In this document: positions 4,650 through 64,000 of the stretch, piece after piece
Layout of the letters: every line of letters begins with the position of its first letter
How positions within the stretch are numbered: the stretch's first letter is position 1
From: Mytilus trossulus
Lineage: Eukaryota
NCBI RefSeq assembly: GCF_036588685.1
Contig: NC_086373.1
Span: 42,346,001-42,410,000 of the forward strand
Direction: 5' to 3'
Length of the DNA stretch: 64,000 bases
Program-made: the position numbers and the translations under genes
Notes under the pieces: model-generated
Seen by the model: the letters and a program-made list of their open reading frames with translations, nothing else
Database searches by the model: none
Told to the model about the DNA's origin: nothing

Positions 4650-6016
4650 AACTAGATGCTCTCAAGAGCCTGTATTGCTCACCTGATTCTACTTGGGTTT
4701 TTGAAATCATGTGAAAAAATATAAAATTTGGCTAAAATAACAACACAACCTCATAAGGAAAGGAACATTCAGGCTATGTTTTATTTCATTCAAAAGTCCC
4801 CCACTAGCAGCCATCTTGGATGATGGATAGGCTACAAACTAACAACACTAGGTCAGCACCTCATAAAAAAACATTCATGCCATGTTTGGTTTCATTCCAT
4901 TCAGTGGTTCGTCAAAAGAAGACATTTGTATATATTTCCAATAGGGTCCTATGTTAAACTAAGTCCCTGGCTGGCAGCCATCTTGGATGATGGATCGGCT
5001 ACAAAGTAAAAACACTTGATCAGCACCTCATAAGGAACATTCATGTCATGTTTGGCTTCATTCCATTCAGTCGTTCTTCAAAAGAAGACATTTGTATATA
5101 TTTCCCATAGGGTCCTATGTTAAACTAAGTCCCCTGCTGGCGGCCATCTTGGATGATGGATTGGCTACAAACTTACAACACTTTGTCAGCACCTCATAAG
5201 GAACATTCATGCCATGTTTGGTTTCATTCCATTCAGTGGTTCTCTAAAAGAAGTCATTTGTATGCATTTCCCATAGGGTCCTATGTTAAACTAAGTCCCC
5301 CGCTGGCGGCCATCTTGGATGATGGATTGGCTACAAAGTAACAACACTTGGTCAGCACCTCATAAGGAACATTCATGCCATGTTTGGTTTCATTCCATTC
5401 AGTGGTTCTCTTAAAGAATTCATTTGTATGCATATTCCATAGGGTCCTATGTTAAACTAAGTCCCCTGCTGGCGGCCATCTTGGATGATGGATCGGCTAC
5501 AAAGTAACAGCACTTGGTCAGCACCTCATAAGGAACATTCATGCCATGTTTGGCTTCATTCCATTCAGTGGTTCTTCAAAAGAAGACATTTGTATATATT
5601 TCCCATAGGGTCCTATGTTAAACTAAGTCCCCTGCTGACGGCCATCTTGGATGATGGATTGGCTACAAAGTAACAACACTTGGACAGCACCTCATAAGGA
5701 ACATTCATGCCATGTTTGGTTTCATTCCATTCAGTGGTTCTCTAAAAGAATTCATTTGGATGCATTTCCCATAGGGTCCTATGTTAAAATAAGTCCCCTG
5801 CTGGCGGCCATCTTGGATGATGGATCGGCTACAAAGTAACAACACTTGGTCAGCACCTCTTAAGGAACATCCATGCCATGTTTGGTTTCATTCCATTTAG
5901 TGGTTCTCTAGAAGAAGTTCAAAATGTAAAAAGTTAACGATGAGGACGACGGGAGACGACGACGGATGCCAAGTGGTGAGAAAAGCTCACTTGGCCCTTT
6001 GGGCCAGGTGAGCTAA
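4650..6016 (-). mobile_element. Helentron-associated non-autonomous element (HINE/DINE-like) carrying a satellite array
   Basis: Subterminal inverted repeats GCTCACCT/AGGTGAGC, terminal hairpin GCTCTCAAGAGC, GGCCC-TTT-GGGCC palindrome and (GAC)n microsatellite; inserted in an A/T tract. Confidence 0.75.
4735..5915. repeat. Tandem satellite array, ~7 x 166 bp
   Basis: GCCATCTTGG anchor at 4810, 4977, 5143, 5309, 5475, 5641 and 5807 (period 166-167). The repeated ORFs in the track are artefacts of this array. Confidence 0.95.
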
Positions 6017-10260: not shown

Positions 10261-13200
10261 CTACTGATTCTGTGATTTGGCTTGTATTTTCATCATCAGC
10301 TTACTGAAAATAGAAATCATTCATTACTGTACATTTTGCAAAAAGGACAAACTGATATCATTATTATATTTATCTCTGTCCCTACATCTTTATCACCCTG
10401 CTCAGTTGCTCCATAATTCTCATCATCACGGCTTAATGATGAGAGCAGATATTATCAGCAACATCAAAATGTCGGAGAAGTTATCAGGGACATCCCAATG
10501 TGTAAGGAGATGTTATCAAGCATGCTTTCGTCAAGCATAAAACTGTTTTAAGGAGGGGAAATATGGATAAATGGATTTTGTTCATGTAGATATTGTCAAA
10601 TATCAGCCGCTCCACACAATGTAAAGCTTTTTAGCTCGTTCTCTGTGCACAGTTGACATTGTGGATGGTGGCTGATATTGTATGATGTCAATGTGTAGAA
10701 AACCTGTTAATCTTTAGTGATACATCTCCATTATTCACTGATGTTTGAATATTTATAATCACTTTTTTGTGATTTTTTTTTCCTTTGTTAAATGTTTATT
10801 AAGATCAATGATAAAGTATAGTAACGAATGGTAAAGAAAGGGTAAGACACTTTTATTGTAAATGTATGCATGCAAGTCCATTTAATTTTGTCAAACAGTG
10901 AACACAAGCATGTCTTTTGGTTCAATTTGAAAATGAAATTTTAGTTGTCTATGAAGTTGCACATTTAAGAATAGTTATAAAATATTAAAAAGAAAATGAA
11001 AGACAGAAAATTTAACACTCTCTTAAATCAATATGAATGTTCAAAAATGTATGTGTAGTCATGAGAAAACAAAACAAAATGCAAAATATGACTTTCCAAT
11101 TTTTATGAATGGAAAAACCCTATATGACTAGGGGAGATAACTCTACATCCAAAATAACTTACAAGTATCAGTAAATAATATTTACTTTAAATAACAAGTA
11201 TCACTCTTGACTATTTTCATGTATGACTTTGATTTTTGTTCTATATTGTGGGTAGATTTTGAAATATAACTACACTTTATAAGTATATGTTAACATTGTA
11301 TCTATAAATAATGTTGTACTAAATAATGCATATGAAGGCATATTATTTACTCACTTGCACAACATTTTAACATCCTTTAACTGATCATACAGATCCTGGT
11401 TAATTCTGTCTTGTTCTACCATCTGTCTTCTTAGATCTTCATCGTCCTTCTTATACTTCATTAAACTTTCTTTCTGTTCCTCAATCACCTGACTCTGTTC
11501 AGCTATAATTTGTTCTTTGGTCTGACCAACATTAACTTCCATATCAATTTTACTGTTTAGATTGTCTATTGTTTTACTATTTTCATTTATTGTTTTACAT
11601 TTGTCATGATTTTGCTCAATGAGATCATTAATTGTGGCACTCTGTTCATTAATTGTAGCACTCTGTTCATTAATTGTAGCACTCTGATCATTAATTGTAG
11701 CACTCTGATCATTAATTGTAGCACTCTGTTCATTAATTGTAGCACTCTGTTCATTAATTGTTATCACATGTTCTTCATTTTTCACATTTAGTTCTTCATT
11801 TTTCACATTTATTTCATTAATTGTAGCACTCTGTTCATTAATTGTATCACTTTGTTCATTAATTGTAGCACTCTGTGCCCTCACTTCATCTTTCTTTTCC
11901 TTAATCATCATCTTCTGCCTTTTAATAACTGATCCATACTCTCCTTTAGTATCCTCTAAATCCCTCAACTGACTACACTGATCACATATCTGTCTATCTT
12001 TCTGTGTTATTGTCCTCCTTAACTGGTACACATGTCTACCCTGTACTTCAGTTATATCCCTTATTCGATTATTATCTTCTGACTTTTGCTCTACTTCATT
12101 TTCTAGTTGGTGAATATTATCTCTCAAGAAATTATTATCTTGTTCTAAATCATGAACACGCCTCAACTGACCGTTGTAAATATGATTGACCAGTTCCAGT
12201 TGAGAATGTAATAATTGCTGCTCATCTCTTTCATGATAAATTTCATCATCTTTCTTCTCTATAGTTCTCATCATTTCAGCTGTAAAATAATTCAAGAGTA
12301 TATTTTTTTATGGATAAAAAATGTTACCAAATTTGAAAATGGGGGATAACTCTATCTTTTGTAAGAAACAAAAGTCTATTCATCAAAGTGAAGAAATTTG
12401 GAAAACTATGCAAATTCAACATAAATGTTCAATCTGATAAATGAGGTTTTATTCATTATCTTTTAAAAAATTATGGTCTTTGTGTGGAATTTAATGAAAA
12501 ACAAATACGCCATTGATTTAATATATACAGAACCTGTAACCACCAATTGAACAAACCCATATTAATCAGAAGTATTGACATCTACATGTAAAAATTAATA
12601 TGAATAATAACTAGTACAAATATGTTATGTTTGACTTATAAGGTATGATGAGATACATTTGTTATAAATTTTCTAACATCGGAAAAATGCCTTAAGCTTT
12701 CCAATTTCAATATCAATACAAATAGAAAGATTTATAAAACTCTGTATATAACAATGAAATCAATGCATTTGAAAAGAAAAATCTATTACAGCATAGTAAA
12801 ATAGTTTGAACCTTCAACCAATTATATAAATCACCATATTTAAGGAGCACAAAAAATAAAGTTTCCATGTTCATTTCAGAAATATTTATTAATATGAAAT
12901 GTTTGATTTCACTGATCTATCAGAGTTTGGTTGAACAATCCAAACATTTACTATACCTAATGACTGAGTCCTTCTTTTAGTTTTATTACCTCTCCAGTTG
13001 TTGATGAAAATTCTATACTGTAAACAGGTAGGGATTTCTCCTGAAAACAGAACAAATATGCAAAACTGAAAATTTAATGAGTTGAAGTTTGTTAAGAAAT
13101 GTAGTCATCCTAATTTTTCACCTCTATACTCATTTTGGGGAGTTTTGTCAAGTCTTTTTTTGTTATATAAAAGTCTCTCATAACTCTTTTGAGAGTGGCT

Positions 13201-34236: not shown

Positions 34237-37200
34237 CTAATGACTCTGTGATTTGGCTTGTATTTTCATCATCAGTTTACTGAAAAGAGAAATCATTCAT
34301 GAATGACATTTACAACAAGCACCAATAATGATATCAGTTATATTTCTCCTATATTCAATGATTTCTGAATATGTATAACCACTGAGTCTGACTGGTTTTC
34401 AGAGAAAAAAAACTCTCTATCCATCTACATAAATTGAAACATCTGCAAGTTCATAAAGTTGATTGAATTCATATAAAGTCAAAAGTTTAACTTAGTTATA
34501 CCAGTATTTTCTTTTTTATCCTTGAAGAGTGTTTAGACATTTACTTGCATGTGTGTACAATGTGTAATTAAATTTCTCAGATTTATTTTTAATGTTTTGA
34601 ATTATCTCCCCTTACCCTTCTACACAGATTTTTCTGTAATTCTCCTGGTATTAAATGTTTAATTTGTTGTAAGCAGGTATTTATTTAACACTCTAAAAGT
34701 GAGGGCAATGTATATACTAACATTGTATGCATAAAAGTTGTTAAAACAATCATGTAACTCATATGAAGGCATATTATTTACTTACTTGCACAATATTTTA
34801 ACATCCTTTAACTGATCATACAGATCCAGGTTTATTCTGTCTTGTTCTACCATCTGTCTTCTTAAATCTTCATCATCCTTCTTGGACTTCCTTAAACTTT
34901 CCTTCTGTTCCTCGATAATTGACTTCTGTTCTTCAAGTTTTGCATTCTGTTCTTCAATCAGCTGACTTTGTTCTGCTATAATCTGTTCTTTGGTCTGACC
35001 AACATGAACTTCCATATCAATTTTACTTTTCAGATTGTCTATTGTTTTGTCCTTTTGTTCACTAATTTCAATTATGGTTTTACATTTGTCATGGTTTTGC
35101 TCAATGAGATCATTAATTGTAGCACTTTGTTCATTAATTGTAGCACTTTGTTCGTCATTTCTCACATTCAGTTCTTCATTTCTCACATTCAGTTCTTCAT
35201 TTTTCACATTCAGTTTTTCATTTTTCACATTCAGTTCTTCATTTTTCACATTCAGTCCTTCATTTTTCACATTTATTTCATTAATTGTAGCACTTTGTTC
35301 TTCATTTTTCACATTTATTTCATTAATTGTAGCACGTTGTTCTTCATTTTTCACATTTATTTCATTAATTGTAGCACTCTGTTCATTAATTGTATCACTT
35401 TGTGCCTTCACTTCATCTTTTTTCTCTTTAATCATCATCTTCTGTCTCTTAATTACCGACCCATACTCTCCCTTTGTATCCTCTAAATCCCTCAACTGAC
35501 TACACTGATCACATATCTGTCTATCCTTCTGTGTTATTGTCCTCCTTAACTGGTACACATGTCTACCCTGTACTTCAGTTATGTCCCTTATTCGATTATT
35601 ATCTTCTGACTTTTGTTCCACTTCGATTTCTAGCTGGTGAATATTGTCTCTCAAGAAATTATTATCTTGTTCTAGATCCTGAACTCGCCTCAACTGACCG
35701 TTGTAAATATGTGTGACCAGATCCATTTGAGAATGTAATAATTGCTGTTCATCTCTTTCATGATAAATTTCATCATCTTTCTTCTCTATAGTTCTCATCA
35801 TTTCAGCTGTAATAAATTTTAAAAGTATGATTTCAAACTATAATATAAAAAAGAAGATGCGGTATGATTGCCAATGAGACAACTATCCACAAAAAAAACC
35901 AAAATGACACAAACATTAACAATTATAGGTCACCATACGGCCTTCAACAATGAGCAAAGCCCATACCGCATAGTCAGCTATAAAAGGCCCCAATAAGACA
36001 ATGTAAAACAATTCAAGCGAGAAAACTAACAGCCTTATTTATGTAAAAAAAATGAACGAAAAACGTTAGTTTTCTCGCTTGAATTGTTTTACATTGTCTT
36101 ATAGGGGCCTTTTATAGCTGACTATATGCGGTATGGGCTTTGCTCATTGTTGAAGGCCGTACGGTGACCTATAATTGTTAATGTTTGTGTCATTTTGGTC
36201 TTTTGTAGATAGTTGTCTCATTGGCAATCATACCACATCTTCTTTTTTATATTAACTCATCAGATAGACAAAAAATATATTATCTAAGACAGACATTTTT
36301 CATAAATCTTAAAATGGGGGATAACTCTATTTTCACATATAACACTTGTATACACATATACATTCATCAAATTGAGAAATTGGGAAAACTAAATGCAAAT
36401 GCAATATAACTGTTGGATCTGATTAGTTTGTCTTTTATCCATCATCTTTAAACAATTCTGGCCTTTGAGTGGAATCTTAAAGCAAATGTCTATTACTTTA
36501 ATATATAAATATTATTCATCTTGCTTATTCTTTAGTTTTCTATGATGTGTCATGTGTTCTAATGTTTGTCTGTTTGTCTTTTTTTTAATTTTTACCCATG
36601 GCGTTGTCAGTTTATTTTCGATTTATGAGTTTGACTGTCCCTCTGGTATCTTTTGTCCCCCTTTTATTGCTGTCGGTGTGAGCCAAAGCTCCATGTTGAA
36701 GACTTCTTTGACCTATAATGGTTCACTTTTACAAATTGTGACTTGGATGGATAGTTGTCTCACTAGCACTTATACCACATCTTCTTATATCTTTAACATG
36801 AAACCACCAATTGTACAAACCCACAAACTAGGAATATTGACATCTGCATGTAAAATTGATTTCTCAAATGTTTTGCAAAAAGCCCCAAATAATAACTAGT
36901 CAAAAGAAACTCTGCTTGACATATAAGGTATCATTTAATATATTTGATTTAAATTTTTTCAAACAGACTAAAATGCTTTCTTGTTTCAATATTATAAACA
37001 GTTTGAAAGATTTAAGAACTCTGTACATTACAATGAAATCAATGCATTTTCAAAATAAGAATAAACATTACAGCATAGTAAAATGATTTGAACTTTCAAC
37101 CAACTATATCATTTAACATTACGGTATATCTAAAGATTATTAACAACAAAGTTTCCTTTTTTATAACAAGAAGATAATTCATGACTATGAAATGTTTGAT

Positions 37201-42982: not shown

Positions 42983-43144
42983 TTTCCATATGCCCCAAAT
43001 ACCTGTGATGTTTAAGCATTCAAGTCATTGCAGTCATAGTGTACAGTAGCATTTTGCCAAATAAATAATATTATTAATCATATAATTTATTTTCAGATTT
43101 GTGGACCACAAGTATGGGGAACCCAGTACAAGCTGCTTAATAGC

Positions 43145-43620
43145 ACTACTATAGGGGGTTTTTGGACCCCCCAAAAAGAAATTAAGACCCCCAAGTTATA
43201 TAATCTTACATAATCTCAAATGACATAATATCATGATGTCATGACGTCATACATTTTATAGCACCCATACATTAATGCTGACTCATCCTAATCTTTATCA
43301 CCCATGTTCCTATCATGAATTCATGACGTCATATATTTTATAGCACCCATATATTAATGCTGACTCATCTTTTTATAGCACCCATTGATGTCATACATGA
43401 GTTAAAAAATTATGATTTGATCATCACCTTCTATTTCCCTATTATTTAAATTATTTGGTTCTGAGAAAATTTTCTTCCCCCTTAATTTTTTTAGATGACA
43501 ACTTATGACACCCACTTCTAACCTATCATGACGTCAAACCTATCATAACGTCATAATGCCATACATTTTTATAGCACCCATTCATTTTAATGCTGACTCA
43601 TCCTTTTATAACACCTATTG
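43145..43620. promoter_or_regulatory. Putative left terminal repeat region with clustered CRE and AP-1/ARE motifs
   Basis: TGACGTCA at 43242, 43324 and 43529; TGACTCA (within TGCTGACTCAT) at 43279, 43361 and 43594; TTTATAGCACCCAT repeated at least 4 times; GGGGGT..ACCCCC hairpin next to the ACTACT. Confidence 0.5.
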
Positions 43621-43726
43621 ACAATTGTTTTTTTTTTGGCTTGTGAAACAGGTGATTAATTTTAACACTGACAAGATGTTTGCAATCTTTATAAAATAAA
43701 TGACTAAATACAATATTATTCATAAT

Positions 43727-46700
43727 TTATTGATATGTTGAATTATTCAACATTTTTTGTTCTTTAAAGTACAACAGTTGACTTTCAATCATATCAGCAT
43801 CTTTAATTTCTTTCTGCAATCTTTTTTTAATTCTTTTAAACATGTTCTCGTGATAGTTCATTTTCACTTGTAAGTTGATAAGCCTTTTATTGTTTATTTT
43901 ATCAACCTTTTCCAAATAGGAAATCATCTCATCTTGTTCATTTGATCTGAAAAAATATTTTAATATTTATGTTAAAAGGTTTTGTTGGGTATGAGGGTGT
44001 TGTTTCGTCCTAATCTCAAAGGATGGAACAAATGGAGGTGGAGCAGTGTATCTAAATATTAAATATAAATAAATATATAATCCCAGCGTTTATCTCCTTT
44101 AATATATATATATGACATAATATATAGACTCTAAATAACAGCCCAACACAACAATGTTAGATCTGTAAATTTGCTTTCTCAAATGTTTGTTCTTCCCTCG
44201 CCTGGATTCGAACTCATGCTACTGTGATATCGTGACACCAAATCGCCTTGCACTAAATACCGTCACATCAAACCACTGCGCCACGTCGACCAGATAAAAA
44301 TCTGGTTTTCCGTGGCGTAGTATTACCTTTCCTCGTCGGTTTTAATTTGATGGCGTATTTTAGAACAATATATATATATATATAGAACTGTAGAAATTTG
44401 TTTTGCATGCACACGTATAAAAAATGCGATTTTTATCCAACGCAATCATAGGTTTGAACGTTGTTTTCAATTTAGACTTGTATATATATATATTTTTTTA
44501 TATACAATTTATGTAGGTGTATATGATTATTTTTTGTGGTTTGTAACTGCTGTAATGCCCAATGATGCCCAATCCTATCAGCAATCATACCATATCTCAT
44601 TAATTTGATAAATTAATCTAACAATATTGTAAAACATAAAAAAGAAGAATAAACTTACATTTGTTGGATATGTGGATATCTTTCCGTCTTGATCTCCACG
44701 GATGGAGCAAGCGGAGGTGGAGCAGTGTCTCTAAATATTATATATCAATATACTAAATAAATAAATGATTGGGAATACGTTAAAGTAATAAAAAGTCAAG
44801 AGAATTTCAGAACGCAATTTGGTTCCGAACAATATCTATCACGCTTTGTGCATGCAGACTCCACGCGGCCTTCACGTGATTTTACTATTTTTAGAATAAT
44901 TGCATAGTAACCAAATGCACTTGATTCAACCTTTACTAATTATGCAACATTTTGACCTGGTCGTGATTAATGTCCTATAATAAGAACCCATGCAGCTTTC
45001 ACCTGATTCTCTATTTATAGAAAAATGTCAGATTAACCTGTCCATATGAACTTGATTGATTCTTATCATGTTATTTATATGGAGCGCCTAAATAAATATC
45101 TTATGAACAGAATTTGTAGTGTCAGAAGTTATATTAATTTATTTATGGCATCTTAAACTGTAAATGCATACTATACGCTTTTATACCCCAATATAAAAAA
45201 AAATGAGGCTAATAGGGTGGTAAAGTATAAAGAAATTTAAACAAAATAATTAAACAAAAATAAAGAATACAAACCAATGACATGATAATGGGAAGAATAC
45301 AGAAATTCGCGACTTCCATCGAAACACTCTTTAAGCAACAGTTGCTATTAGCTCATTGGTGAAGGTCGAAAATGCTTCATTTACATATTTTGTGAAGCAA
45401 TTTCTTTATATAATGCATTTGGTTTCGCTCATTGTTGAAGGCCGTAAATGCTTCACTTTTCATATTTTTTAAACAAATTCTAACTAAATATAATGCATTT
45501 GATTTTTCTCATTGTTGAAGGCCGTGAATGCTTCACTTTTCAAATTTTGCTGTGTCCATATCAACGGCAGCTATTTTGACCTTTTTCAAAAGAGATGTCA
45601 AAAACATTTCACTTAAGTCTGATATTCTGTCAGAACATGCTACTTTTACGTTGTTCCCATAAAGGTTTCACTTTTTTTGCTGCATGCAAACTCCAAGCAG
45701 CCTTTACTTGATTTTCAGAATTTTTAGATTGAAAAATTCCGATGTATCCGAGTAATTAAGAACAATCCCGATACAACCGAATGAACTTTCGTCAGGCTTT
45801 ATTATATATCAATATACTAAATAAATAAATGATTGGGAATACGTTAAAGTAATAAAAAGTCAAGAGAATTTCAGAACGCAATTTGGTTCCGAACAATATC
45901 TATCACGCTTTGTGCATGCAGACTCCACGCGGCCTTCACGTGATTTTACTATTTTTAGAATAATTGCATAGTAACCAAATGCACTTGATTCAACCTTTAC
46001 TAATTATGCAACATTTTCGAATAATTCTCTAGAAAATATTTCAATAGGTTCTAAAATTTATGTTGTAAATATAGTACACACTGCAGTTATTAATAGATAA
46101 ATAAAAAAATAACTTGTACCCTTTAATACATCCAATCACAGCGTTCTTAAGTTGACTTCCTACGCCCTGTCTTGGGTACACACAAGGCCAACCTAATGCT
46201 GGGAAAATGTGATACTACCGTTTTCCCTATACATCAAACATTATGAAATTGAATATTTTGTCCAGAACTATACGAATGAAAATTATAATAGATCCAAATT
46301 TTATTCAGATTGTACTATAAAGAAACCGAAGTTTTTTTTCGATTTATTTACATAAACTTATTAAATCAGCTGCAGCATTACTATTATATGTAGACCTTCA
46401 TTGCATAAAACAATGGAAATAACATTGTATATTGATATAAACGATCAAACTTGTTAAATATAAATAAATTCTATATAATCCCGGCGAGGGAAGAACAAAA
46501 TTTGCCACCACAAATCTACATATTTATCATTATTTTGCTGACATTAGAGGAATTATGAATATTATATATATATTACACGGGAAGTAAAGGAGGAGTTTTT
46601 TATTTTAAAATTAAAATAACGACTGAATACAAAGTATGCATGTTCTATTGTGTGATAATGACGTTCCGTACTTCTATATATAGACTAAGTGTAATACGAT

Positions 46701-46981
46701 TTATCTCCCTTAATATACTCAACAACAACTATGACGATACATAGTAACGATGTATAGTTTCACCTGAAGATTGTTTTAAAAACAAACAACATGAAAGTAC
46801 TTGTGAAGTAAAACTATTTATACAGGAAATGTTGGATTTAATAGTAATCTATATATATTTCTATACACAAGAACTTATTGCATCTCCTTATTGCTTTGTA
46901 TATTAATTTAACTTGTGACAATATATGTGAAACATAAAACTATAAAACTTACATTTGAGTGATGCTAGGTTTGCTTTCCAT
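43727..46981 (-). CDS. Spliced small protein (~106 aa), Pro-rich N-terminus plus coiled-coil C-terminus, in the putative Polinton left arm
   Basis: Exons 46981-46953 (ATG..AT|gtaagt), 44730-44659 (tttag|..AT|gtaagt) and 43946-43727 (ttcag|..TAA), all phase 2, give MESKPSITQIDTAPPPLAPSVEIKTERYPHIQQISNEQDEMISYLEK... Confidence 0.55.
44130..44290 (-). mobile_element. tRNA-derived SINE-like element (Pol III A and B boxes)
   Basis: A box TGGCGCAGTGG (44273-44283) and B box GTTCGAATCC (44204-44213); a partial second copy lies at ~46478-46530 on the + strand. Confidence 0.6.
44737..46017. repeat. 217-bp direct repeat pair (44737-44953 and 45801-46017)
   Basis: The two copies appear identical by eye, offset by 1064 bp. 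Confidence 0.85.
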
Positions 46982-47504
46982 CCTTTTGTAGGTTATCAAG
47001 ATTAACTATAGAGTACCATCTATATATTTATATATAAAATTAAACTGTCTAAATTAATTAATATTATATGTTGTATAGTTTAAGGATAAATTCCAATGTC
47101 AGGTTGTAAACGTATTTTCAATTTTAAAATCCGTAAGGCATCCATTATTCATCAATTTTTGTGAAGTTTTAGTCAGATAAATTCATAAATGAAATATGGT
47201 ATTAATTTTACATGTGATTAATTGAAATAATAATTGTTTTAGTCTTCAGGGTACAAAAGCAATAGTGTTACCATTTCAAGACAACAATTTAAAAGTGCAA
47301 CGACACAATTTTTAACAAAAACAATTATTATTATACTTTACTATAGTAACCACTAATAAAATAAACTTCACAAATAATCCCTTTTTCCGGCGCGTACTGC
47401 GCGTAGGCAAAATAACTGTGCGGATATGAGCGCGTAGGCAAAATAACTCATTTGGCGGCAATTTGCACGTCGTCTTTCAAATAACAACTCTAAGTTCAGT
47501 TCAG

Positions 47505-47672
47505 TATAATAATACAGTTATGGCCTTCATAAAAGTTAATATTCAAAATTATTAAATTTCGAAAAAGATTAGTTTACCTCGGTCCTACGGACCTCGAGAA
47601 AAATAACCCTTTTCTCGATTTAATAATTCTGGATATTAACTTTTGATGAAGGCCATGATTGTATATTATTCA
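47505..47672. mobile_element. Fold-back MITE-like palindrome
   Basis: ATGGCCTTCATAAAAGTTAATAT...ATATTAACTTTTGATGAAGGCCAT inverted arms. Confidence 0.7.
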
Positions 47673-47900
47673 ATAAGTAATAATTTTTTTATGAAATTGT
47701 TCTCATTTTAATAGTAAATGTTTAACGAATTTATTGAAAATGCATGGACCATTTGTGTCTGAAATAAGAGATTATCTTATCTTATCGTAATAGGATTCCA
47801 ATACAATAGGATCGAACAATCTAATTTATATGTGGCGAATAGGCCGGGGTCGAAAGATTATCGTTCCACAGGTACGCATGAGCGGCCATTTGCAGAAAAC

Positions 47901-49765
47901 ATGAAGATGTTTTTAGCGGTGATTGTGTTTTCTTTGTATTTTTTTATGTACACAGATGCTTGTTTGTCATGTACAAAATTAGGAATCACCACAGAGTGTC
48001 TGTGCGAAGAAGGAATATGTTTACACATTGAAGATGACAAAATATACCTTGTCAAACTGACTGGATCGTGTAACTGTAATGTTACGTATATATCCAAGAA
48101 ACCCTCACTGGTCCTAAATAGGAACGATGCATCTTGTTCCTGGACATGTTCAAGTTTTCTTTGTTGTAAGTTATTATAGAAACTATACCAATATATTATG
48201 TAACACTCCTCTGATTATAATAATGTTTTTAAATCTTACATGTAATATAACATATGTTTATTTCAAATACAGTTACGTTAATTTTGTCGTCCATTATATA
48301 GTTTCTTGTCCCACTTATTGTCCTACATACAGAAAATGTAGATGCAAACTATTTCATGATTGTGGTTGATTCTGCATATACACATTCTAATAGCTTTAAT
48401 TACAGTTAATGATAAANNNNNNNNNNNNNNNNNNNNNNNNNNNNNNNNNNNNNNNNNNNNNNNNNNNNNNNNNNNNNNNNNNNNNNNNNNNNNNNNNNNN
48501 NNNNNNNNNNNNNNNNNNNNNNNNNNNNNNNNNNNNNNNNNNNNNNNNNNNNTCAAGGATATTGTGTTAATAGAAAAAAAGAAAGAAAAACTGTCAATAC
48601 ATCATAAAGTATTCCTTCAAAATACAACATTTACAAAAATATGAATGAAATCTTGTGTTTATTTTACAGTTCCTGATAATGCAACAGTTACAACCAAAAG
48701 TAATCTGTTACTTACCACACTGACAACAGGTGCAGTACCTCAAAAGACAGAAGCTACAACAGAAAAGACACCAATAACAACAGGAGTAACAACATCAACT
48801 ATCACCATAGGAGAAGCAACAGACACAACACAGACAATATCCATGACAGTAACAACAACAGATATAAATTATACCATTACAGGTACAAAAAAAAAATGTA
48901 TTACCTTTTTTGTACATTGAATTTTGTTGTGTAAAAAATAGATGTAAATCAAGATTTTTGTTTGATTTATGAAATACATTGTTGAAGTGAGCCAAGTTTG
49001 TAATGTCCATTGGCCAATATTTCAAAGATTTTAAGGACAGTGTCACATTATAAACTTTATCTTTCCTGTACTTTTTTTTTCAGAGTTCACCTCTGTAATT
49101 TGAAAAGTAACTTGATCTTAAAGGTGTTTCATTGAGTAAATATTTATATAAATGCCCCAAAAAAAAAAGTGTACAAAACAACACCAATATATATATAAAA
49201 AAAAGAAACATTAAATATAAATATCTATGAATATTTTGGATAACAGATATCCTTCATCAGTATGATAATGATGTAAATTGAATCATATCAATCTATTCTG
49301 ATTTAACTATAATAATTTTTTTTTTTTATAGGATTGTGGATTTGGGCTGTAGTTTTCAGTGTTTTCATTGTAGCTGCCTTAATGAAACTTATTCTTCAAC
49401 TGCGAAAACAACAGAACCAATACTTACCACTGCTTAGAAGCCTTAATTCTACCACAAATTCACATCTTTATAGCCAGACCATGCAGTCCTCATATTTAAG
49501 TATGGAATCATCCCAAACACCATCAGCACAGGGAAATATTAGCACGCCTGAACCATTCAATCGTAGCATCTACACGCCACCACAGTCATCAAGCCCAAAA
49601 CATGATACACTACCATCACCACCTACAGTATTTCATATCAATGACCAAGAGGAATCACCTGAACCTTCTGCATCACCAATTGAATTGATGTCAATATCTC
49701 CCATTGCCAGTAGAACAAGAACCAAAACCAAAAAAAAGATCATGTTTGAGGAAATTAATTTGTAA
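47901..49765 (+). CDS. Spliced type I membrane glycoprotein (~303 aa): signal peptide, 10-Cys ectodomain, Thr-rich mucin stalk, TM helix, Ser/Pro-rich tail
   Basis: Exons 47901-48165 (|gtaagt), 48670-48882 (tttacag|..|gtacaa) and 49332-49765 (tttatag|), all phase 1. Signal MKMFLAVIVFSLYFFMYTDA; TM LWIWAVVFSVFIVAALMKLIL. An N gap in intron 1 could hide further exons. Confidence 0.75.
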
Positions 49766-49947
49766 AAAAAAATTACTTGGACATTTTGAATCAAAGTCAG
49801 AAAAAAAATCATAACTTTTAATTTTTTTTTTTTTTATTTCTTTGGATAAAAAAAGACCATAATTGTCTAAATAAATATTTTTTAGTGCATCAGTTTGTTC
49901 AAGAAAGAAAAATAGCAACAACAAAAAAATCAGAAATACTACTACTT

Positions 49948-51496: not shown

Positions 51497-51988
51497 ATGG
51501 AAAAAATTGTTGAAGAGGAAACTGACAGTTTGGCCATTCCTATGGCATACTCACACTCAAGCATGAGATCTAGTATAAGTTCTTTGTTTAGGAACTATGA
51601 CATTCATTTCGACATTTTGAAAATGACAGGAATTTTGGTACTTTTATCTATAATGAGTGCTACTTTGGCAATGACTCATCATATTTATGCTTGTGACAAT
51701 TCTCAAAACAGAACTGATTGTATTTCATTATTAACTACCGACTCTTTGGACCAACAACAAAATTTTAGTTTGTGTACTTACATGAAACAATTTCAATTAC
51801 CAGGACATTACTATGTCACAATATGTACCTATCAAGCAGACATCAGAGTTGATGTCCGAATGTATCTTAATGATAGACCTACAATCAAAGGATTCTTTCT
51901 GAACACAAATCAATATGAATATTTAAAAAGGTTGATACCACATATTGACAAATCTATAAGCAACGCAAGAGCAAGAATAGGACAATGA
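51497..51988 (+). CDS. Transmembrane protein with C-terminal PC4-like ssDNA-binding domain
   Basis: Hydrophobic ILKMTGILVLLSIMSATLAM segment, then FQLPGHYYVTICTYQADIRVDVRMYLNDRPTIKGFFLNTNQYEYLKRLIPHID, matching the PC4 pattern YVTV..F.G...IDIR.Y....P.KKGI.L...QW..L. Confidence 0.75.
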   Translation: MEKIVEEETDSLAIPMAYSHSSMRSSISSLFRNYDIHFDILKMTGILVLLSIMSATLAMTHHIYACDNSQNRTDCISLLTTDSLDQQQNFSLCTYMKQFQLPGHYYVTICTYQADIRVDVRMYLNDRPTIKGFFLNTNQYEYLKRLIPHIDKSISNARARIGQ

Positions 51989-52049
51989 TAAAAGAGAACC
52001 TGGTGGAATTTTCATGTACTATATACTTTTATGTGTGTATATAGACTTT

Positions 52050-52081
<32 letters not shown>

Positions 52082-52120
52082 GGAAATAATCGTATAACTA
52101 TAGATCAGACTGATATCGCT

Positions 52121-52783
52121 ATGAGTGACGAAAAGACGCTTCTCCCCTTTTCTTCCCCGACAACAATGTATATTGCCGGTCCGACGCAATCTGGAAAATC
52201 GATGTTCACCAAAAAACTCATCGAAAATGCTTCAAAAATGTTTACGGAAACACCAGATAGAATCTTGTATGCTTATTCCGAGTATCAGACATTGTTCGAC
52301 GACATGCAGAATATTCCAAATTTAACTTTTCAAGAAGGACTACCAGACAAACAGGAAATAGACGAGTTTACCCTAAATACGAAACATGCTTTAATTATAC
52401 TCGATGATTTAGTATCTAAAATTGTGCAATCCTCCGACCAATTGCATTTGTTTTCTGTAACCAGTCACCACAAAAAGGCATCAGTGGTGCTGATTTCTCA
52501 ATCTTTGTATCCGCCAGGGAAGTTTTCGAAAAGTATATCCCTGAACTGTGCTAATTTTGTCTTGTTTCGTAATCCACGAGATATGCGTCAATTGACAACA
52601 TTTGCCTCTCAGATACTTCCTGGCATGACAAAATATTTTAATGATTCTTATAGAAAGGCAACTCGGGAAAGATTTAACTACCTTTTTGTCGACCTGTCTA
52701 ATCAAAGAGAGGACAGAGAAAAGTTTATGTTACGCACGGGAATTTTCCCCAACGATACTTGTGTGGTTTACAGACCTGTATAA
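52121..52783 (+). CDS. Polinton DNA-packaging ATPase (FtsK/HerA, A32-like)
   Basis: Walker A GPTQSGKS, Walker B LIILDDL, SHH and VLISQ motifs. Start moved to ATG 52121 because the upstream extension is a TA microsatellite. Confidence 0.95.
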   Translation: MSDEKTLLPFSSPTTMYIAGPTQSGKSMFTKKLIENASKMFTETPDRILYAYSEYQTLFDDMQNIPNLTFQEGLPDKQEIDEFTLNTKHALIILDDLVSKIVQSSDQLHLFSVTSHHKKASVVLISQSLYPPGKFSKSISLNCANFVLFRNPRDMRQLTTFASQILPGMTKYFNDSYRKATRERFNYLFVDLSNQREDREKFMLRTGIFPNDTCVVYRPV

Positions 52784-52832: not shown

Positions 52833-53141
52833 ATGAGCGGTCGTATGAGATCCAACTCAGTGTTATTGAAGTTTCTGTACAAGACAAACAAAAAGCAAAG
52901 AGTGACTGTCTTATCACACCTTAGTAAAGAAGAAATAGAAGTTTTTTCTGAGATAGCTCTGAACATTTATAAAGGAGTGTTTCCAAACAAAACGAAATAC
53001 GTGAACACTTTAAAACCGTTTAAATCGATCGTTTTCAGACTGGGATCAAAGTCGGTGAGTAGTCAAAAGAAGAAGAAAATTCTGATCCGATACCAAAACA
53101 TAATTCCACTCTTAATACGACCTGTTTTGGAATTTCTGTAG
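52833..53141 (+). CDS. Small basic Polinton protein (putative virion core protein)
   Basis: Immediately follows the ATPase; the EIALNIYKG...KKKIL..IIPLLIRPVL pattern resembles small ORFs commonly seen in Polintons. Confidence 0.7.
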   Translation: MSGRMRSNSVLLKFLYKTNKKQRVTVLSHLSKEEIEVFSEIALNIYKGVFPNKTKYVNTLKPFKSIVFRLGSKSVSSQKKKKILIRYQNIIPLLIRPVLEFL

Positions 53142-59361: not shown

Positions 59362-60450
59362 ATGACAGTATTTTCATACTCAGGGTATAACATGATGGGA
59401 TTCGATAGAGAACGTACCGAATACAGATGCGGTTGCTATTCCGAATACTATTCGCACGATTCATTTTTTTACAACGATTCCAGAGGTGGTTTTGTCAATG
59501 TTTGCGGAAAACACGACCATGAAGATACAGCACGAAGTGATCATTTTGAACATATCAAAGCCGAACGTGTAATAGGAAAAGCTGAAGACGTTTTAACGAC
59601 ACAAATGAAACCTGTCCCTATTATTAGGTATCTAAAGGAACAGAGAATGATTTCCGATGATGATGCAAGCAGGCTGCTAAAATATGATTCAAAGTCTATA
59701 ATGGTAAAGGAGCTGTTACAGATTTTCATTCAGCGTATATCATTAAATCAATTGAGGTTGACATTAATAAAAACTGAACAGACACAGTTACTTAGATATT
59801 TGACAGATTCGGAGCAAAATCAAGAAGACGATACTGAAAAAAGCTACGAAGGAAGATGTATGTTACATCTCGAGGGAGACTGCTATGTCGTTGCCAACGA
59901 CTATAAAGGCTGTATTTACATTCACATTCGCAAATACATGACAAAAGGATCTAAGAAATTTCCAACTAAACAAGGTGCGAGTCTTACGCTCTCCAGATGG
60001 CTGATGTTAAAATCTAAGAAAGATGAGATCGACCTAAAGTTTAAAAACGGACTTGATGGCAAACTTGAAGAAGAAGATTTGATTCATCTAGGAGGTGGTG
60101 TATACATTACAATAAATCCAGAATTCCCTACTGTAGATATTAGACATTTTTGGAGGCCTCAAGATGCACCTAAAGCAGTCGCTACAAAACGCGGTGTAGC
60201 CTTGAATAAGTTTAAATGGGAACGTCTCTGTTATGTAATGGATTTGATGATAGATTTCGTACCAGAATTGAATAGTGGTGTCATCTGTGAGTTTACCCAC
60301 GACAACGAAATGGGTATTTTGGCCTGTAAAGAATGTAATCCCTTCCCGGAAACTGATGAAGACGATCCCGTCCCAGAGGATGAAAACGACACTTTACCAC
60401 TACCACCACTTCTAGACAAACAAGAGGGGATTCCTGAAATTGCTAATTGA
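59362..60450 (+). CDS. CARD-like death-fold domain + two tandem PC4-like domains + C-terminal Zn-binding motif
   Basis: aa ~66-148 show a six-helix CARD pattern (EDVLTTQMKPVPIIRYLKEQRMISDDDASRL..VKELLQIF..LRLTLIKTEQTQLLRYL). PC4 repeats lie at aa ~166-225 and ~240-296, followed by CEFTH..CKEC. Confidence 0.75.
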   Translation: MTVFSYSGYNMMGFDRERTEYRCGCYSEYYSHDSFFYNDSRGGFVNVCGKHDHEDTARSDHFEHIKAERVIGKAEDVLTTQMKPVPIIRYLKEQRMISDDDASRLLKYDSKSIMVKELLQIFIQRISLNQLRLTLIKTEQTQLLRYLTDSEQNQEDDTEKSYEGRCMLHLEGDCYVVANDYKGCIYIHIRKYMTKGSKKFPTKQGASLTLSRWLMLKSKKDEIDLKFKNGLDGKLEEEDLIHLGGGVYITINPEFPTVDIRHFWRPQDAPKAVATKRGVALNKFKWERLCYVMDLMIDFVPELNSGVICEFTHDNEMGILACKECNPFPETDEDDPVPEDENDTLPLPPLLDKQEGIPEIAN

Positions 60451-60635: not shown

Positions 60636-60926
60636 GATTTAAAAAAAAAAGATCAAATCATAAAACGAGTATTAACATGAAAGGTTTAAAAACATATTTA
60701 ATACGTGATTCATTGGTATAACATTAATTACGTTGGTGACTCTTGAATGGGCTCATGAAAATGAGTAAAAAAAACCAAAAAAAAAAAAAACGATTTAAAA
60801 AAAAATCAAATCATAAAACGAGTATTAACATGAAAGGTATAAAAACATATTTAATACGTGATTCATTGGTATAACATCCATTACGTTGGTGACTCTTGAA
60901 TGGGCTAATGAAAATGAGTAAAAAAC
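60636..60926 (+). repeat. 153-bp tandem duplication of the integrase upstream region and first codons
   Basis: ATCAAATCATAAAACGAG...ATGAAAATGAGTAAAAAA occurs at 60652 and again at 60805. Confidence 0.9.
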
Positions 60927-62083
60927 AAAAAGAAGATTACATCAGAAAAATATGGACTGACCCCAGTCATCCTGCAGCATTTGCCGGTCCTGATAAACTT
61001 TATAAAATAATTCAAAAAGATGGGAAGTTTGACATAGGTCGCGGCAGCGTTAAAAGAATTTTAGCCAAAATAGATACTTATAGTGTTCAGAGACCTACTA
61101 GAAAAAAGTTTAAAAGAAATAGGGTAATCGTGTCTGGTATCGATGCGCAATGGGACGGTGACCTCGCATCCATGGAAAATGTATCGAAATACAATAAATA
61201 CAAATTTTTACTGATACTGATAGATATATTTTCCAGGTATCTAATAGTCAGACCGTTAAAGGATAAAAAAAGCACTACCGTTGCAACGGCATTAAAATCT
61301 ATTTTTAATCAAAGTAACAGAAGACCATCAACTATTCGTTTCGATCAGGGAGGAGAGTTCAAAGCGAGTGTAAAACAATATTTGAAGAAAACAGGGATTC
61401 ATGTTTTTTACACCCATAACTCTCAGATAAAGAGTAACTATGCGGAAAGAGTTATCAGAACGTTAAAAAATCGTATATATTCCTATTTCATGGAAAACCA
61501 AACGTACAAATATATAGATGTACTTCAGGATCTGGTAACTAGTTATAATAATACTCCACATCAGTCGTTAGGAGGTGCAACACCAACTTCGGTGACGAAA
61601 AAAAATGAGGATGAAATTCGGTACGTCCAATACCTAGCAAGGCAAAAAAATAAAAAACCAAAGAAAACGACAAAGCAAAAAAACCAAAAACCAATAAAAA
61701 TGACAAAATCCAAGAAGAAGAAACGACCTTTCTATAAATTTAATTTGGGTGATCACGTCAGAGTTTCTCAACTAAAAAGAGTATTCGAGAAAGGATATCA
61801 GGAAAATTGGACATTGGAATATTTTACGATTTCAAAAAGATTTAAAAGAGATAATCTTGACATTTATGTTTTATTTGATGCCTTAGGTGATAGAATTGAA
61901 GGAACATTTTACCGAAATGAACTTCAGAAAATAGAAAAATCTGATACTGAACTATATAAAATTGAAAAAATTACCAAGAAAAGAAAGATAGCGGGGAAGG
62001 ACCAAGTTTTAGTTAAATGGTTGGGATGGCCTTCTAAATTTAACTCGTGGGTATCCAAGGATGAAGTAAAAGAATTCAAATAG
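60908..62083 (+). CDS. int: Retroviral-type (c-int) DDE integrase with C-terminal chromodomain
   Basis: WDGDL..IDIFSR, RFDQGGEF and AERVIRTLK; SH3-like FNLGDHVRVS; chromodomain YKIEKI...VLVKWLGWPSKFNSWV. Confidence 0.95.
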   Translation: MKMSKKQKEDYIRKIWTDPSHPAAFAGPDKLYKIIQKDGKFDIGRGSVKRILAKIDTYSVQRPTRKKFKRNRVIVSGIDAQWDGDLASMENVSKYNKYKFLLILIDIFSRYLIVRPLKDKKSTTVATALKSIFNQSNRRPSTIRFDQGGEFKASVKQYLKKTGIHVFYTHNSQIKSNYAERVIRTLKNRIYSYFMENQTYKYIDVLQDLVTSYNNTPHQSLGGATPTSVTKKNEDEIRYVQYLARQKNKKPKKTTKQKNQKPIKMTKSKKKKRPFYKFNLGDHVRVSQLKRVFEKGYQENWTLEYFTISKRFKRDNLDIYVLFDALGDRIEGTFYRNELQKIEKSDTELYKIEKITKKRKIAGKDQVLVKWLGWPSKFNSWVSKDEVKEFK

Positions 62084-62120: not shown

Positions 62121-62543
62121 ATGAGTCTGAGAATTGTTGTCTCTTCAGCAGACGGGATTGACTTATTTTCCGATAATCAAACTTTTAATTTCAGAGTCAA
62201 ATTGAATAGAACAATACAGTTAGATGGATATTGGGTTGTGGCACTAACGGAGTTTACTTCGACCGAACAAGTTGACTTACACAAATCATTATTTATTTTT
62301 TCGGATATGTGTCAACAAAGTTTTATAGGAAACAACGAGCAACCATTACTTAGAAGAGTACAATTTGAGAGAAGAAATCAACGCAATATGATATTTTACA
62401 ATCCTTATTACATCCCTGTTCGAACAGGCTCAATGGAACATATCCATGTATATATAACAGATGATAAAGGAGTATTTGCTTCATTTCTCAAACAGCCGGT
62501 TACACTGACACTTCATTTTAAAAAGTTTCCTTTTGTCCTTTAA
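62121..62543 (+). CDS. Minor capsid protein (penton, single jelly-roll)
   Basis: N-terminal F.DN...NFRVKL...L.G.W.VAL.E and C-terminal PLLR..YIPV..I.VYITD..G..LHF motifs typical of Polinton pentons. Confidence 0.85.
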   Translation: MSLRIVVSSADGIDLFSDNQTFNFRVKLNRTIQLDGYWVVALTEFTSTEQVDLHKSLFIFSDMCQQSFIGNNEQPLLRRVQFERRNQRNMIFYNPYYIPVRTGSMEHIHVYITDDKGVFASFLKQPVTLTLHFKKFPFVL

Positions 62544-62544
62544 G

Positions 62545-62997
62545 ATGAACAGTTTGACATATGTAACAGATCCTAGTATGTGGGAGAAATTTTATAAAAA
62601 TATGGTAAACAGAAATTTTAATCCATACAAATACAAAAACAGTAAAAGAATAAATCAGACAGGGCGTGGTTTACATGGCAGATATAGGGGTTCCTACATG
62701 ATTCCTGTTAACGCAAATGCTGTGGAGGAGACTGAGCCGATGCAGGGCCCTACGACTATGGTGTCACCAGTTGCTGCTGCAGAAGAGAGAGCATTTTCAC
62801 AAATGAAAACAGAAACGGCTAAACCACATGTTAAGATACAGAAACATATAAAACGGTCAAGGAAACATAAAATAGTCAGTAGAAAAAAATCGAACAAGAA
62901 GTCAACATCTAAACTGAAAAAGAAAAAAACTTTCAAAAGGAAAATCAGAAACGATTATTCTGATAGTGTGTGGAATATCAAAAAGAGAAAGAAGTAA
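62545..62997 (+). CDS. Basic, Lys-rich putative DNA-condensing core protein
   Basis: Lies between penton and major capsid; contains a QTGRG motif and a very basic C-terminal third. Confidence 0.7.
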   Translation: MNSLTYVTDPSMWEKFYKNMVNRNFNPYKYKNSKRINQTGRGLHGRYRGSYMIPVNANAVEETEPMQGPTTMVSPVAAAEERAFSQMKTETAKPHVKIQKHIKRSRKHKIVSRKKSNKKSTSKLKKKKTFKRKIRNDYSDSVWNIKKRKK

Positions 62998-62999
62998 TC

Positions 63000-64000
63000 A
63001 TGTCTTTTTTGAGCGGGGATAATAAGGATATTGGACAACCTCAGGAATTATCTATTTTTGCATCTCCTCCTAATCAAGTAGCTGTTGAAAAAGTAACATA
63101 CACGGAAGAACGACCTATTTCGAATTTAATCAATGATTCTACCCCCATAGAAATAGTTGTTTCTGGAGCTGGAAATGATTATATAGATTTAAGAAAAAGT
63201 CGTCTATATGTCAAAATGCAAATTTTAAAATCAGATGGAACTAAGCTAGTAGATGATGAAAAAACAGGTATCATTAATTTACCGTTGCAGAGTATGTTTT
63301 CACACATTGATATTTACATGAACAATAAGCTTATATCAATAAATTCCAACAATTATCCTTGGAAAGCCTATTTCAAGACGATACTTTCTTCTGGAAACGA
63401 TGAACAGAATTCACAACTTCAAAGCCAACTCTTCATGAAAGACGATGACCCTATGGACTCTGTGAGTCTCAATTCCGGTATAGTTAACAGAATGCAATTT
63501 ACACAAGATTCAAGAGTATTCGAGTTAGAAGGAAATTTATTGGAAGATGCACTTCAACTGGATAAATATCTTATAAGTGGTGTCGATATCTACATGAAAC
63601 TTTTCAGATCAAATGTTCCCTTTCTACTCATGTCTGAAGAAATTTCGCCAAGTTACAAAGTCAAAATTTTGGATGTGTTTTATAGAACCGCGAGAGTCAA
63701 ATTGGACCCGGGAGTTATAATGAACCATCGAAACGAAATACAAAAATCACCAGCCCAATACATGATCACTAGAAGTCACGTTATACAAAATGTAATTCCT
63801 AAGGGGTCAACTGATTTTTTTTGGGATGCAATGTTTCCGAAAGCTCTTCCATCAAAAGTAGTAATTGGGCTAGTTTCCCAAAAAGCTGCAAATGGAGATT
63901 ATACTGCTAATCCGTTTAATTTTCAACATTTCAACATGACAAACGTTACTATGAAAGTGAATGGCGTGGAGGTTTATGGGTCTCCATTGAGTTTGGATTT
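63000..64000 (+). CDS. Major capsid protein (double jelly-roll), truncated by the window edge
   Basis: Open from ATG 63000: ELSIFASPPNQ..RPIS..PIEIVVSG..YIDLRKSRLYVK..NLPLQSMFS..NNYPWKAY..NPFNFQHF, the Polinton MCP pattern. It is missing from the ORF track because it has no stop in the window. Confidence 0.92.
   Translation, partial: MSFLSGDNKDIGQPQELSIFASPPNQVAVEKVTYTEERPISNLINDSTPIEIVVSGAGNDYIDLRKSRLYVKMQILKSDGTKLVDDEKTGIINLPLQSMFSHIDIYMNNKLISINSNNYPWKAYFKTILSSGNDEQNSQLQSQLFMKDDDPMDSVSLNSGIVNRMQFTQDSRVFELEGNLLEDALQLDKYLISGVDIYMKLFRSNVPFLLMSEEISPSYKVKILDVFYRTARVKLDPGVIMNHRNEIQKSPAQYMITRSHVIQNVIPKGSTDFFWDAMFPKALPSKVVIGLVSQKAANGDYTANPFNFQHFNMTNVTMKVNGVEVYGSPLSLD

Follow-up and report, generated by a model that had tools for sequence, protein, structure and literature searches.

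A spliced gene for a predicted type I membrane glycoprotein in a Polinton of the mussel Mytilus trossulus

Results

Structure of the gene

The window, the whole 64,000-nucleotide stretch of Mytilus trossulus contig NC_086373.1 that was analysed, contains a three-exon gene with the following features.

47506–47669, strand., imperfect palindrome, about 230 bp 5′ of the start codon
47901–48165, +, exon 1, 265 nt, with the start codon at 47901
47901–47960, +, predicted signal peptide, cleavage after TDA placed by eye
48166–48669, +, intron 1, GT-AG, phase 1, with a GTAAGT donor after the tenth Cys
48670–48882, +, exon 2, Thr-rich stalk, 213 nt, 39% Thr, phase 1 at both ends
48883–49331, +, intron 2, GT-AG, phase 1
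49332–49765, +, exon 3, 434 nt, membrane helix and 120-aa S/T/P-rich cytoplasmic tail
about 49334–49402, +, membrane helix, from the hydropathy of exon 3
49421–49432, +, YLPL, a YxxPhi-type sorting motif 7–10 residues after the helix
49664–49675, +, PSAS; three related tail types have PSAP, the TSG101-binding late-domain motif, at this position
49700–49747, +, family signature PIASRTR, a Lys-rich stretch, then IMF
49870–49875, +, AATAAA, possible polyadenylation signal

The three exons joined encode 303 amino acids, and the RefSeq model XP_063424494.1 (P0052, 303 aa, Mytilus trossulus) matches all three exon translations letter for letter. A Mytilus coruscus model (P0011), with a head 88% identical, has the same splice junctions; both models are gene predictions. 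A preliminary description of this DNA had joined three open reading frame fragments in phase into one protein of about 303 residues, and the exons, the phase-1 GT-AG introns and the RefSeq identity agree with that assembly. The position of the intron 1 donor is conserved within the family. Since five of five genomic heads checked, at 22–28% identity, have a final Cys with a phase-1 GT donor after it, the gene structure is not due to chance. There are 136 masked bases in intron 1 (48417–48552), and a dispersed genomic repeat of about 155 bp lies inside intron 2, at about 49164–49320.

The signal peptide and membrane helix calls are based on hydropathy, which peaks at 2.6 in exon 3 and at 1.9 at the N-terminus (Kyte–Doolittle, 19 aa window). 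Past the signal peptide, exon 1 encodes a 68-aa head with the 10 Cys originally described, 8 of which are family-wide. The Thr-rich stalk, about 70 aa long, has the sequons NAT and NYT as first reported, but the NVT sequon that had been placed with them is in the head. The helix and the long S/T/P tail had also been recognised correctly, although the tail continues past KKK, its supposed end, to ...IMFEEINL and the stop. By prediction, the protein thus has a signal peptide, one membrane helix and three extracellular sequons, and its identification as the product of an element-borne type I membrane glycoprotein gene is supported at the level of sequence.

The enclosing Polinton

The gene is located 4.5 kb inside the left terminal repeat of a complete Polinton, whose right terminal inverted repeat is at 65109–65373 in extended coordinates. 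The other features of the element are as follows.

43139–43144, +, left 6-bp target-site duplication, AATAGC; the right copy is 3′ of the right terminal repeat, outside the window
43145–43409, +, left terminal inverted repeat, 265 bp, 99% identical to the right one
51497–51988, +, next gene, predicted type II membrane glycoprotein with a C-terminal PC4-like domain
52031–52783, +, packaging ATPase, Pox_A32-like (E 6e-4, below the Pfam cut-off)
52833–53141, +, 102-aa ORF, by eye like ‘GasderminX’ of Mytilus adintovirus BK011005
53489–59111, −, protein-primed DNA polymerase B, in pieces (PF03175, E 1e-16 and 7e-13)
59362–60450, +, PC4-domain protein (Pfam)
60908–62083, +, rve integrase with a C-terminal chromodomain (PF00665, E 6e-11; PF00385, E 3e-7)
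62121–62997, +, two ORFs of 140 and 150 aa without a Pfam match above the cut-off; from position, presumably the minor capsid and core proteins
63000–64000, continuing to 64304, +, large ORF without a Pfam match, which from size and position is probably the major capsid protein

Beyond the window there is an adenain-type protease (PF00770, E 3.5e-7, above the cut-off). The capsid-candidate ORFs fit in size and place and are conserved in other elements, with no Pfam match. The preliminary description had placed the glycoprotein gene in a Polinton arm and had named a host gene flanking the insertion as the alternative. Because the gene lies within the terminal repeats and the target duplication, it is not a flanking host gene, and it has relatives in other lineages. 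In three Polinton lineages (the window, C5:52.53 Mb and C8:59.21 Mb), polymerase B is broken into three pieces at corresponding positions and appears to be split by two spliceosomal introns common to all three; the window copy has a frameshift near 56.75 kb and is masked in part.

Three sister copies, 98–99% alike, are present at C5:31.1 (31.11–31.13), C5:34.5 (34.55) and C7:33.8 (33.76) Mb. They are rearranged, with exon 1 lost, exon 3 kept, and all, part or none of exon 2 remaining, and two of them are flanked by their own 6-bp target duplications. Their terminal repeats are present, while the left arm is replaced or cut, in two copies with an inverted piece of the right end in its place.

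The left arm of the window element (43410–47900) has no ORF longer than 93 codons; it contains a 218-bp stretch repeated exactly in direct orientation (at 44736 and 45800), together with an 80-bp tandem repeat and the palindrome at 47506–47669. Elsewhere in the window, a 166-bp unit occurs in tandem in 6.8 copies that are 92% alike (4794–5917). Paralogous ORFs of 307 and 339 aa lie outside the element at 11351–12274 and 34782–35801 (−), in a duplicated block of about 23.5 kb; they have 7-residue repeats, are coiled-coil-like and have no Pfam match.

The product of the next gene (51497–51988) has a membrane helix at about residues 40–58, sequons after the helix and a Cys pair in the PC4-like domain. 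This layout was seen in nine of nine copies retrieved by pattern, from eight of nine regions, and the PC4 score ranges from E 1e-9 in one lineage to 0.035 in the window copy. Judging from these features, the element encodes two adjacent predicted membrane glycoproteins. The PC4-like domain of the neighbour, a single-stranded-DNA-binding fold, is predicted to face outside the cell; its sequons and Cys pair are conserved in four lineages, with at least 31 matches in the genome. A literature search combining Polinton, PC4 and transmembrane found no paper.

The family and its head

Protein searches of the genome gave 18 head loci, 17 of them on C5 and the window copy the exception, after weak rows lacking the Cys pattern had been removed (10 of 15 in one search and 1 of 8 in another). 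The region of C5 with these 17 loci, 12–64 Mb, also has many Polinton remnants, some nested in one another. Searches of public databases brought up 13 longer relatives, every one named as Mytilus. From 1.84 billion proteins they gave 22 cluster representatives; of the 21 looked up, the six with names are Mytilus and 15 are unnamed, mostly on short contigs. In one family type, the P0001 cluster, the proteins of M. edulis, M. galloprovincialis, M. trossulus and M. californianus share at least 90% identity, a likeness that reflects either recent spread between species or strong conservation.

Members share a layout in which an 8-cysteine head, with a phase-1 intron after it, precedes a Thr stalk that varies, a single membrane helix and a tail ending in P[IV]AxRTR. 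Five positions (C57, C59, W81, C83 and C88) are the same in all 24 heads compared, and four more (C24, C33, P69 and C79) are nearly invariant. The stalks vary freely, and model P0020 is without one. At L074 (C5:12.194–12.195 Mb), the stalk exon runs into its own membrane helix and is followed by a second helix-and-tail exon, and this gene may have alternative ends.

The Cys-rich head is modelled as a short beta-solenoid, and the structure search proposed in the preliminary description gave no significant fold match, with no Pfam or PDB match. A class III fusogen such as MFUS-1 or gB does not fit an ectodomain consisting of a 68-aa head and a 70-aa stalk, with no room for a fusion-loop domain or trimeric coiled coil. 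An Ig-like CR1 domain, as in the E3 CR1 and RL11 proteins, has no Pfam match in any of the 24 heads, and the solenoid model and Cys pattern are unrelated to it. Of the attachment or envelope protein initially suggested, the envelope fusogen is unlikely, because the head has 68 aa and does not match fusion folds. The accompanying premise that capsid-encoding Polintons are non-enveloped was too strong, since nematode Mavericks carry a gB-like fusogen (bioRxiv 10.1101/2022.07.12.499685, in part).

Motifs of the cytoplasmic tail

A YxxPhi motif is near the membrane in seven of seven full tails, one of them doubtful, as counted without a shuffle control. SPEPSAPPM occurs exactly, at one aligned position, in three of the seven, which are 30–41% alike; the window copy reads SPEPSASPI, and the four further tail types have nothing similar. 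PSAP is thus present in three of eight tail types, and PPxY in none of the seven full tails, while P[ST]AP occurs in 0.8–2.6% of shuffled tails. One PSAP tail matches Pfam Gag_p6 (HIV Gag p6) with E 0.0036, below the cut-off. The window copy itself, with PSAS and no PPxY, has neither form of late domain.

What might a late domain do in this tail? The protein could be the exit and attachment protein of a vesicle-cloaked particle, with the tail recruiting ESCRT and capsids to the membrane and the head binding the next cell, possibly jointly with the adjoining PC4-like glycoprotein. The exact SPEPSAPPM, set against the shuffled tails, and the Gag_p6 match argue for this, as do the presence of the second predicted glycoprotein, the fusogen of nematode Mavericks, and the precedent of bluetongue NS3: this glycoprotein belongs to a naked virus and, in budding, binds TSG101 through its PSAP (PMC6949946, in part). 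However, the lineage of the window copy has been inserted recently, with separate target duplications, despite having PSAS, and PSAP is missing in five of eight tail types. Furthermore, no fusogen gene was found in the window element, and a structural gene would be expected to be conserved in all elements, whereas the glycoprotein gene is patchy and fast-changing. On balance, we find a role in exit doubtful, though a serious contender.

The most constant feature is P[IV]AxRTR near the end of the tail, in all seven full tail types and in an eighth, partial type (8/8); among 5000 shuffled tails it arises once at most. In the close relative P0011 from M. coruscus, the tail end is altered and lacks the motif. 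The invariant end would be explained best by a receptor with a nuclear tail, of which the ectodomain is shed and the stub is cut in the membrane, so that the freed tail could bind chromatin or cell-cycle regulators. The proposed contacts are P[IV]AxRTR and K-K-x-[LIM]-x-F, and the tail end may resemble cyclin- and PP1-docking motifs. Alternatively, the uncut protein would tether chromatin at the inner nuclear membrane. R-T-R-S aligns with the nucleosome arginine anchors of LANA (R7, L8, R9) and IE1 (R486) (PMC9040877, in part), and shedding has a precedent in E3/49K (PMC13437282, in part). The likeness to arginine anchors is weak, however, because no sequence motif diagnostic of acidic-patch binders emerged from an AlphaFold screen (bioRxiv 10.1101/2024.06.26.600687, in part). 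Moreover, basic tails can be membrane-binding or export signals (PMC6949946, in part), and YxxPhi and PSAP point to endosomes. A nuclear tail is thus, in our estimate, unlikely. We consider it quite unlikely that the protein is a Polinton-encoded signalling receptor, in which the variable head would sense a host or pathogen cue and the cut-off tail would bring the P[IV]AxRTR anchor to chromatin. The integrated element could then monitor conditions outside the cell and control its own reactivation or the host response.

Linkage to Polintons and evolution

Constant linkage to Polinton cores, the check suggested at the outset, was seen in part. There is a Polinton gene within 20 kb at 13 of the 17 loci with flanks read, compared with roughly 0.2% of the genome within that distance of Polinton genes (from at least 76 matches); many of the loci are duplicates, so they are not independent. 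The locus at C5:52.5 Mb is enclosed by the repeats of another complete Polinton, which has a target duplication of its own, and two family loci share the left arm of that element at 98%. The four loci without a Polinton gene in the flanks read are all on C5, at 12.09, 12.19, 31.21 and 48.22 Mb, with 10 kb read per side at 12.09 and 31.21 Mb. At 12.19 Mb, the head is intact, the nearest integrase remnant is 40 kb away and M. coruscus has an 87–89% relative; the 48.22 Mb locus is a frameshifted 1.6-kb duplicate of the 12.19 Mb one. The complete Polinton at C8:59.2 Mb gave no head match, and there are at least 45 capsid matches in the genome; thus, the gene is an accessory of some lineages. Some elements have two paralogues of it.

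The head has changed faster than the core genes: the window element and the C5:52.5 Mb Polinton are 80% identical in the putative capsid protein, 70% in the ATPase and 68% in the integrase, but 21–23% in the head. Head and tail identities do not track each other, at 89% and 36% in one pair and 27% and 46% in another, as would fit a swapping of modules at the phase-1 introns. When seven heads of one paralogue type are compared in pairs, dN/dS is 0.14–0.62 in 16 of 21 pairs, with dS ≥0.2, and near 1 or undefined in the five youngest; the pairs span 36–83 codons, are not independent and come from a paralogue type other than that of the window copy. No positive selection was seen in the head pairs tested, and several family copies contain stops. 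These ratios suggest that paralogous heads are under purifying selection between sub-lineages, and the overall pattern would be that of a gene kept during the spread of the element that decays after insertion.

These results bear on whether the gene is a passenger, that is, a captured host gene of no use to the element, or a member of a mainly host family with some Polinton copies. The four loci lacking a Polinton gene in the flanks read, including the intact 12.19 Mb head, and the type at least 90% alike in four Mytilus species would fit a passenger, as would the introns, which are also present in nematode Maverick cargo (bioRxiv 10.1101/2022.07.12.499685, in part). Introns do not mark host origin in these Polintons, however, since in three lineages the polymerase, too, appears to be spliced. 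At two of the four exceptions, 10 kb of flank was read per side, and one shares flanking DNA with linked copies. The excess of Polinton linkage over the genomic background, and the decay of young duplicates while older splits are under purifying selection, also argue against a passenger, which we judge very unlikely, though the gene at 12.19 Mb may be one.

Discussion

To our knowledge, no particle has been tied to most Polintons, and their exit, their entry and their handling of host defence are open. What, then, is the function of the glycoprotein? The preliminary description, which did not note the family, its conserved tail motifs or the adjacent second membrane gene, offered three candidate functions and left the choice between them undecided: an attachment or envelope protein, a superinfection-exclusion factor, or an immune decoy akin to adenoviral E3 membrane proteins. 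We tentatively favour, by analogy, a surface modulator like those of the adenovirus E3 region, sorted through endosomes. The host spliceosome and the ER and secretory path would make the protein in element-bearing cells. The small, presumably disulfide-bonded head, probably held out on a glycosylated stalk, would bind a host surface molecule, and YxxPhi in the tail would recruit clathrin adaptors, so that the tail could draw the glycoprotein and the bound host molecule into endosomes. In lineages that keep PSAP, this motif may hand the glycoprotein to ESCRT. Removal or masking of the host receptor would protect the element-bearing cell from haemocytes or from a competing element. The layout matches that of E3/49K, a glycosylated type I protein with a flexible linker that is sorted by YxxPhi and LL motifs and is known to be shed (PMC13437282, in part).

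Because the gene changes fast, exchanges modules, is patchy and has paralogues, a role as a host-facing accessory fits it better than a structural one. On the other side, P[IV]AxRTR with the basic stretch resembles a nuclear signal more than one for sorting, the E3-like model does not account for this invariant end, and the exact SPEPSAPPM in three divergent tails fits budding equally well. By analogy with adenoviruses, these mussel Polintons probably exert an effect at the surface of the host cell.

A Polinton clade keeps a spliced, modular predicted surface glycoprotein under selection, beside a second predicted glycoprotein, and this appears to be a new accessory family in a known element type. 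If the PSAP reading is true, mussel Polintons exit the cell in vesicles, with no fusogen involved. Among the Mytilus genes annotated as host genes, ‘mucin-2-like’ or ‘uncharacterized’, some are element genes. The 68-aa head and the three short tail motifs provide handles for ligand and motif tests for which no replicating element is needed.

Comparison with known systems

The element resembles adintoviruses, including Mytilus adintovirus BK011005, in its polymerase B, rve integrase with chromodomain, ATPase, adenain protease, candidate capsid genes and GasderminX-like ORF. The adintovirus accessory genes described include PLA2X, GasderminX, cupiennin, Oncoids, Bcl2 and IAP, some of them membrane-active, and section 3.2 of that paper, on accessory genes, names no mucin-stalk type I protein (PMC8502044). 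PIA[RSK]RTR was not found in the searched part of the BK011005 adintovirus supplement text. A term search of a coral polintovirus preprint gave no match for transmembrane, glycoprotein or intron (bioRxiv 10.1101/2023.10.06.561300), and our literature searches found no description of the mussel glycoprotein family. A membrane protein in a Polinton is not new, given the membrane-active adintovirus genes, the Maverick fusogen and the ‘candidate envelope glycoproteins’ already in print (bioRxiv 10.1101/2024.03.25.586562, in part); what appears to be new is the family, its modular build and its tail motifs.

Like MFUS-1 of nematode Mavericks, the mussel protein has a signal peptide and one membrane helix, and like the Maverick cargo genes WASP and KRMA, its gene is intron-bearing, modular and near the left terminal repeat (bioRxiv 10.1101/2022.07.12.499685, in part). 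In contrast, MFUS-1 has 866 aa and a class III fusion fold, whereas the mussel protein has 303 aa with a 68-aa head, and the Maverick cargo encodes enzymes rather than a predicted surface protein. Bluetongue virus NS3, another membrane glycoprotein, belongs to a naked virus and has a PSAP late domain along with basic motifs (PMC6949946, in part); it has two membrane helices and PPxY as well, while the mussel family has one helix, and PSAP in three of eight tail types.

The E3 CR1 proteins of adenoviruses (E3/49K, CR1-beta) and HCMV RL11 provide a further comparison, although no homology to the mussel family was found. An accessory type I glycoprotein goes with a naked, adenain-processed capsid, and the flexible extracellular linker, the YxxPhi motif (YLPL in the window copy) and fast change are shared (PMC13437282, in part). 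The E3 CR1 proteins have an Ig-like domain, in contrast to the head of 8–10 Cys modelled as a short beta-solenoid in the mussel family. The mussel tail, at 100–145 aa, is 5–7 times longer than the 19-aa tail of E3/49K, and it ends in P[IV]AxRTR.
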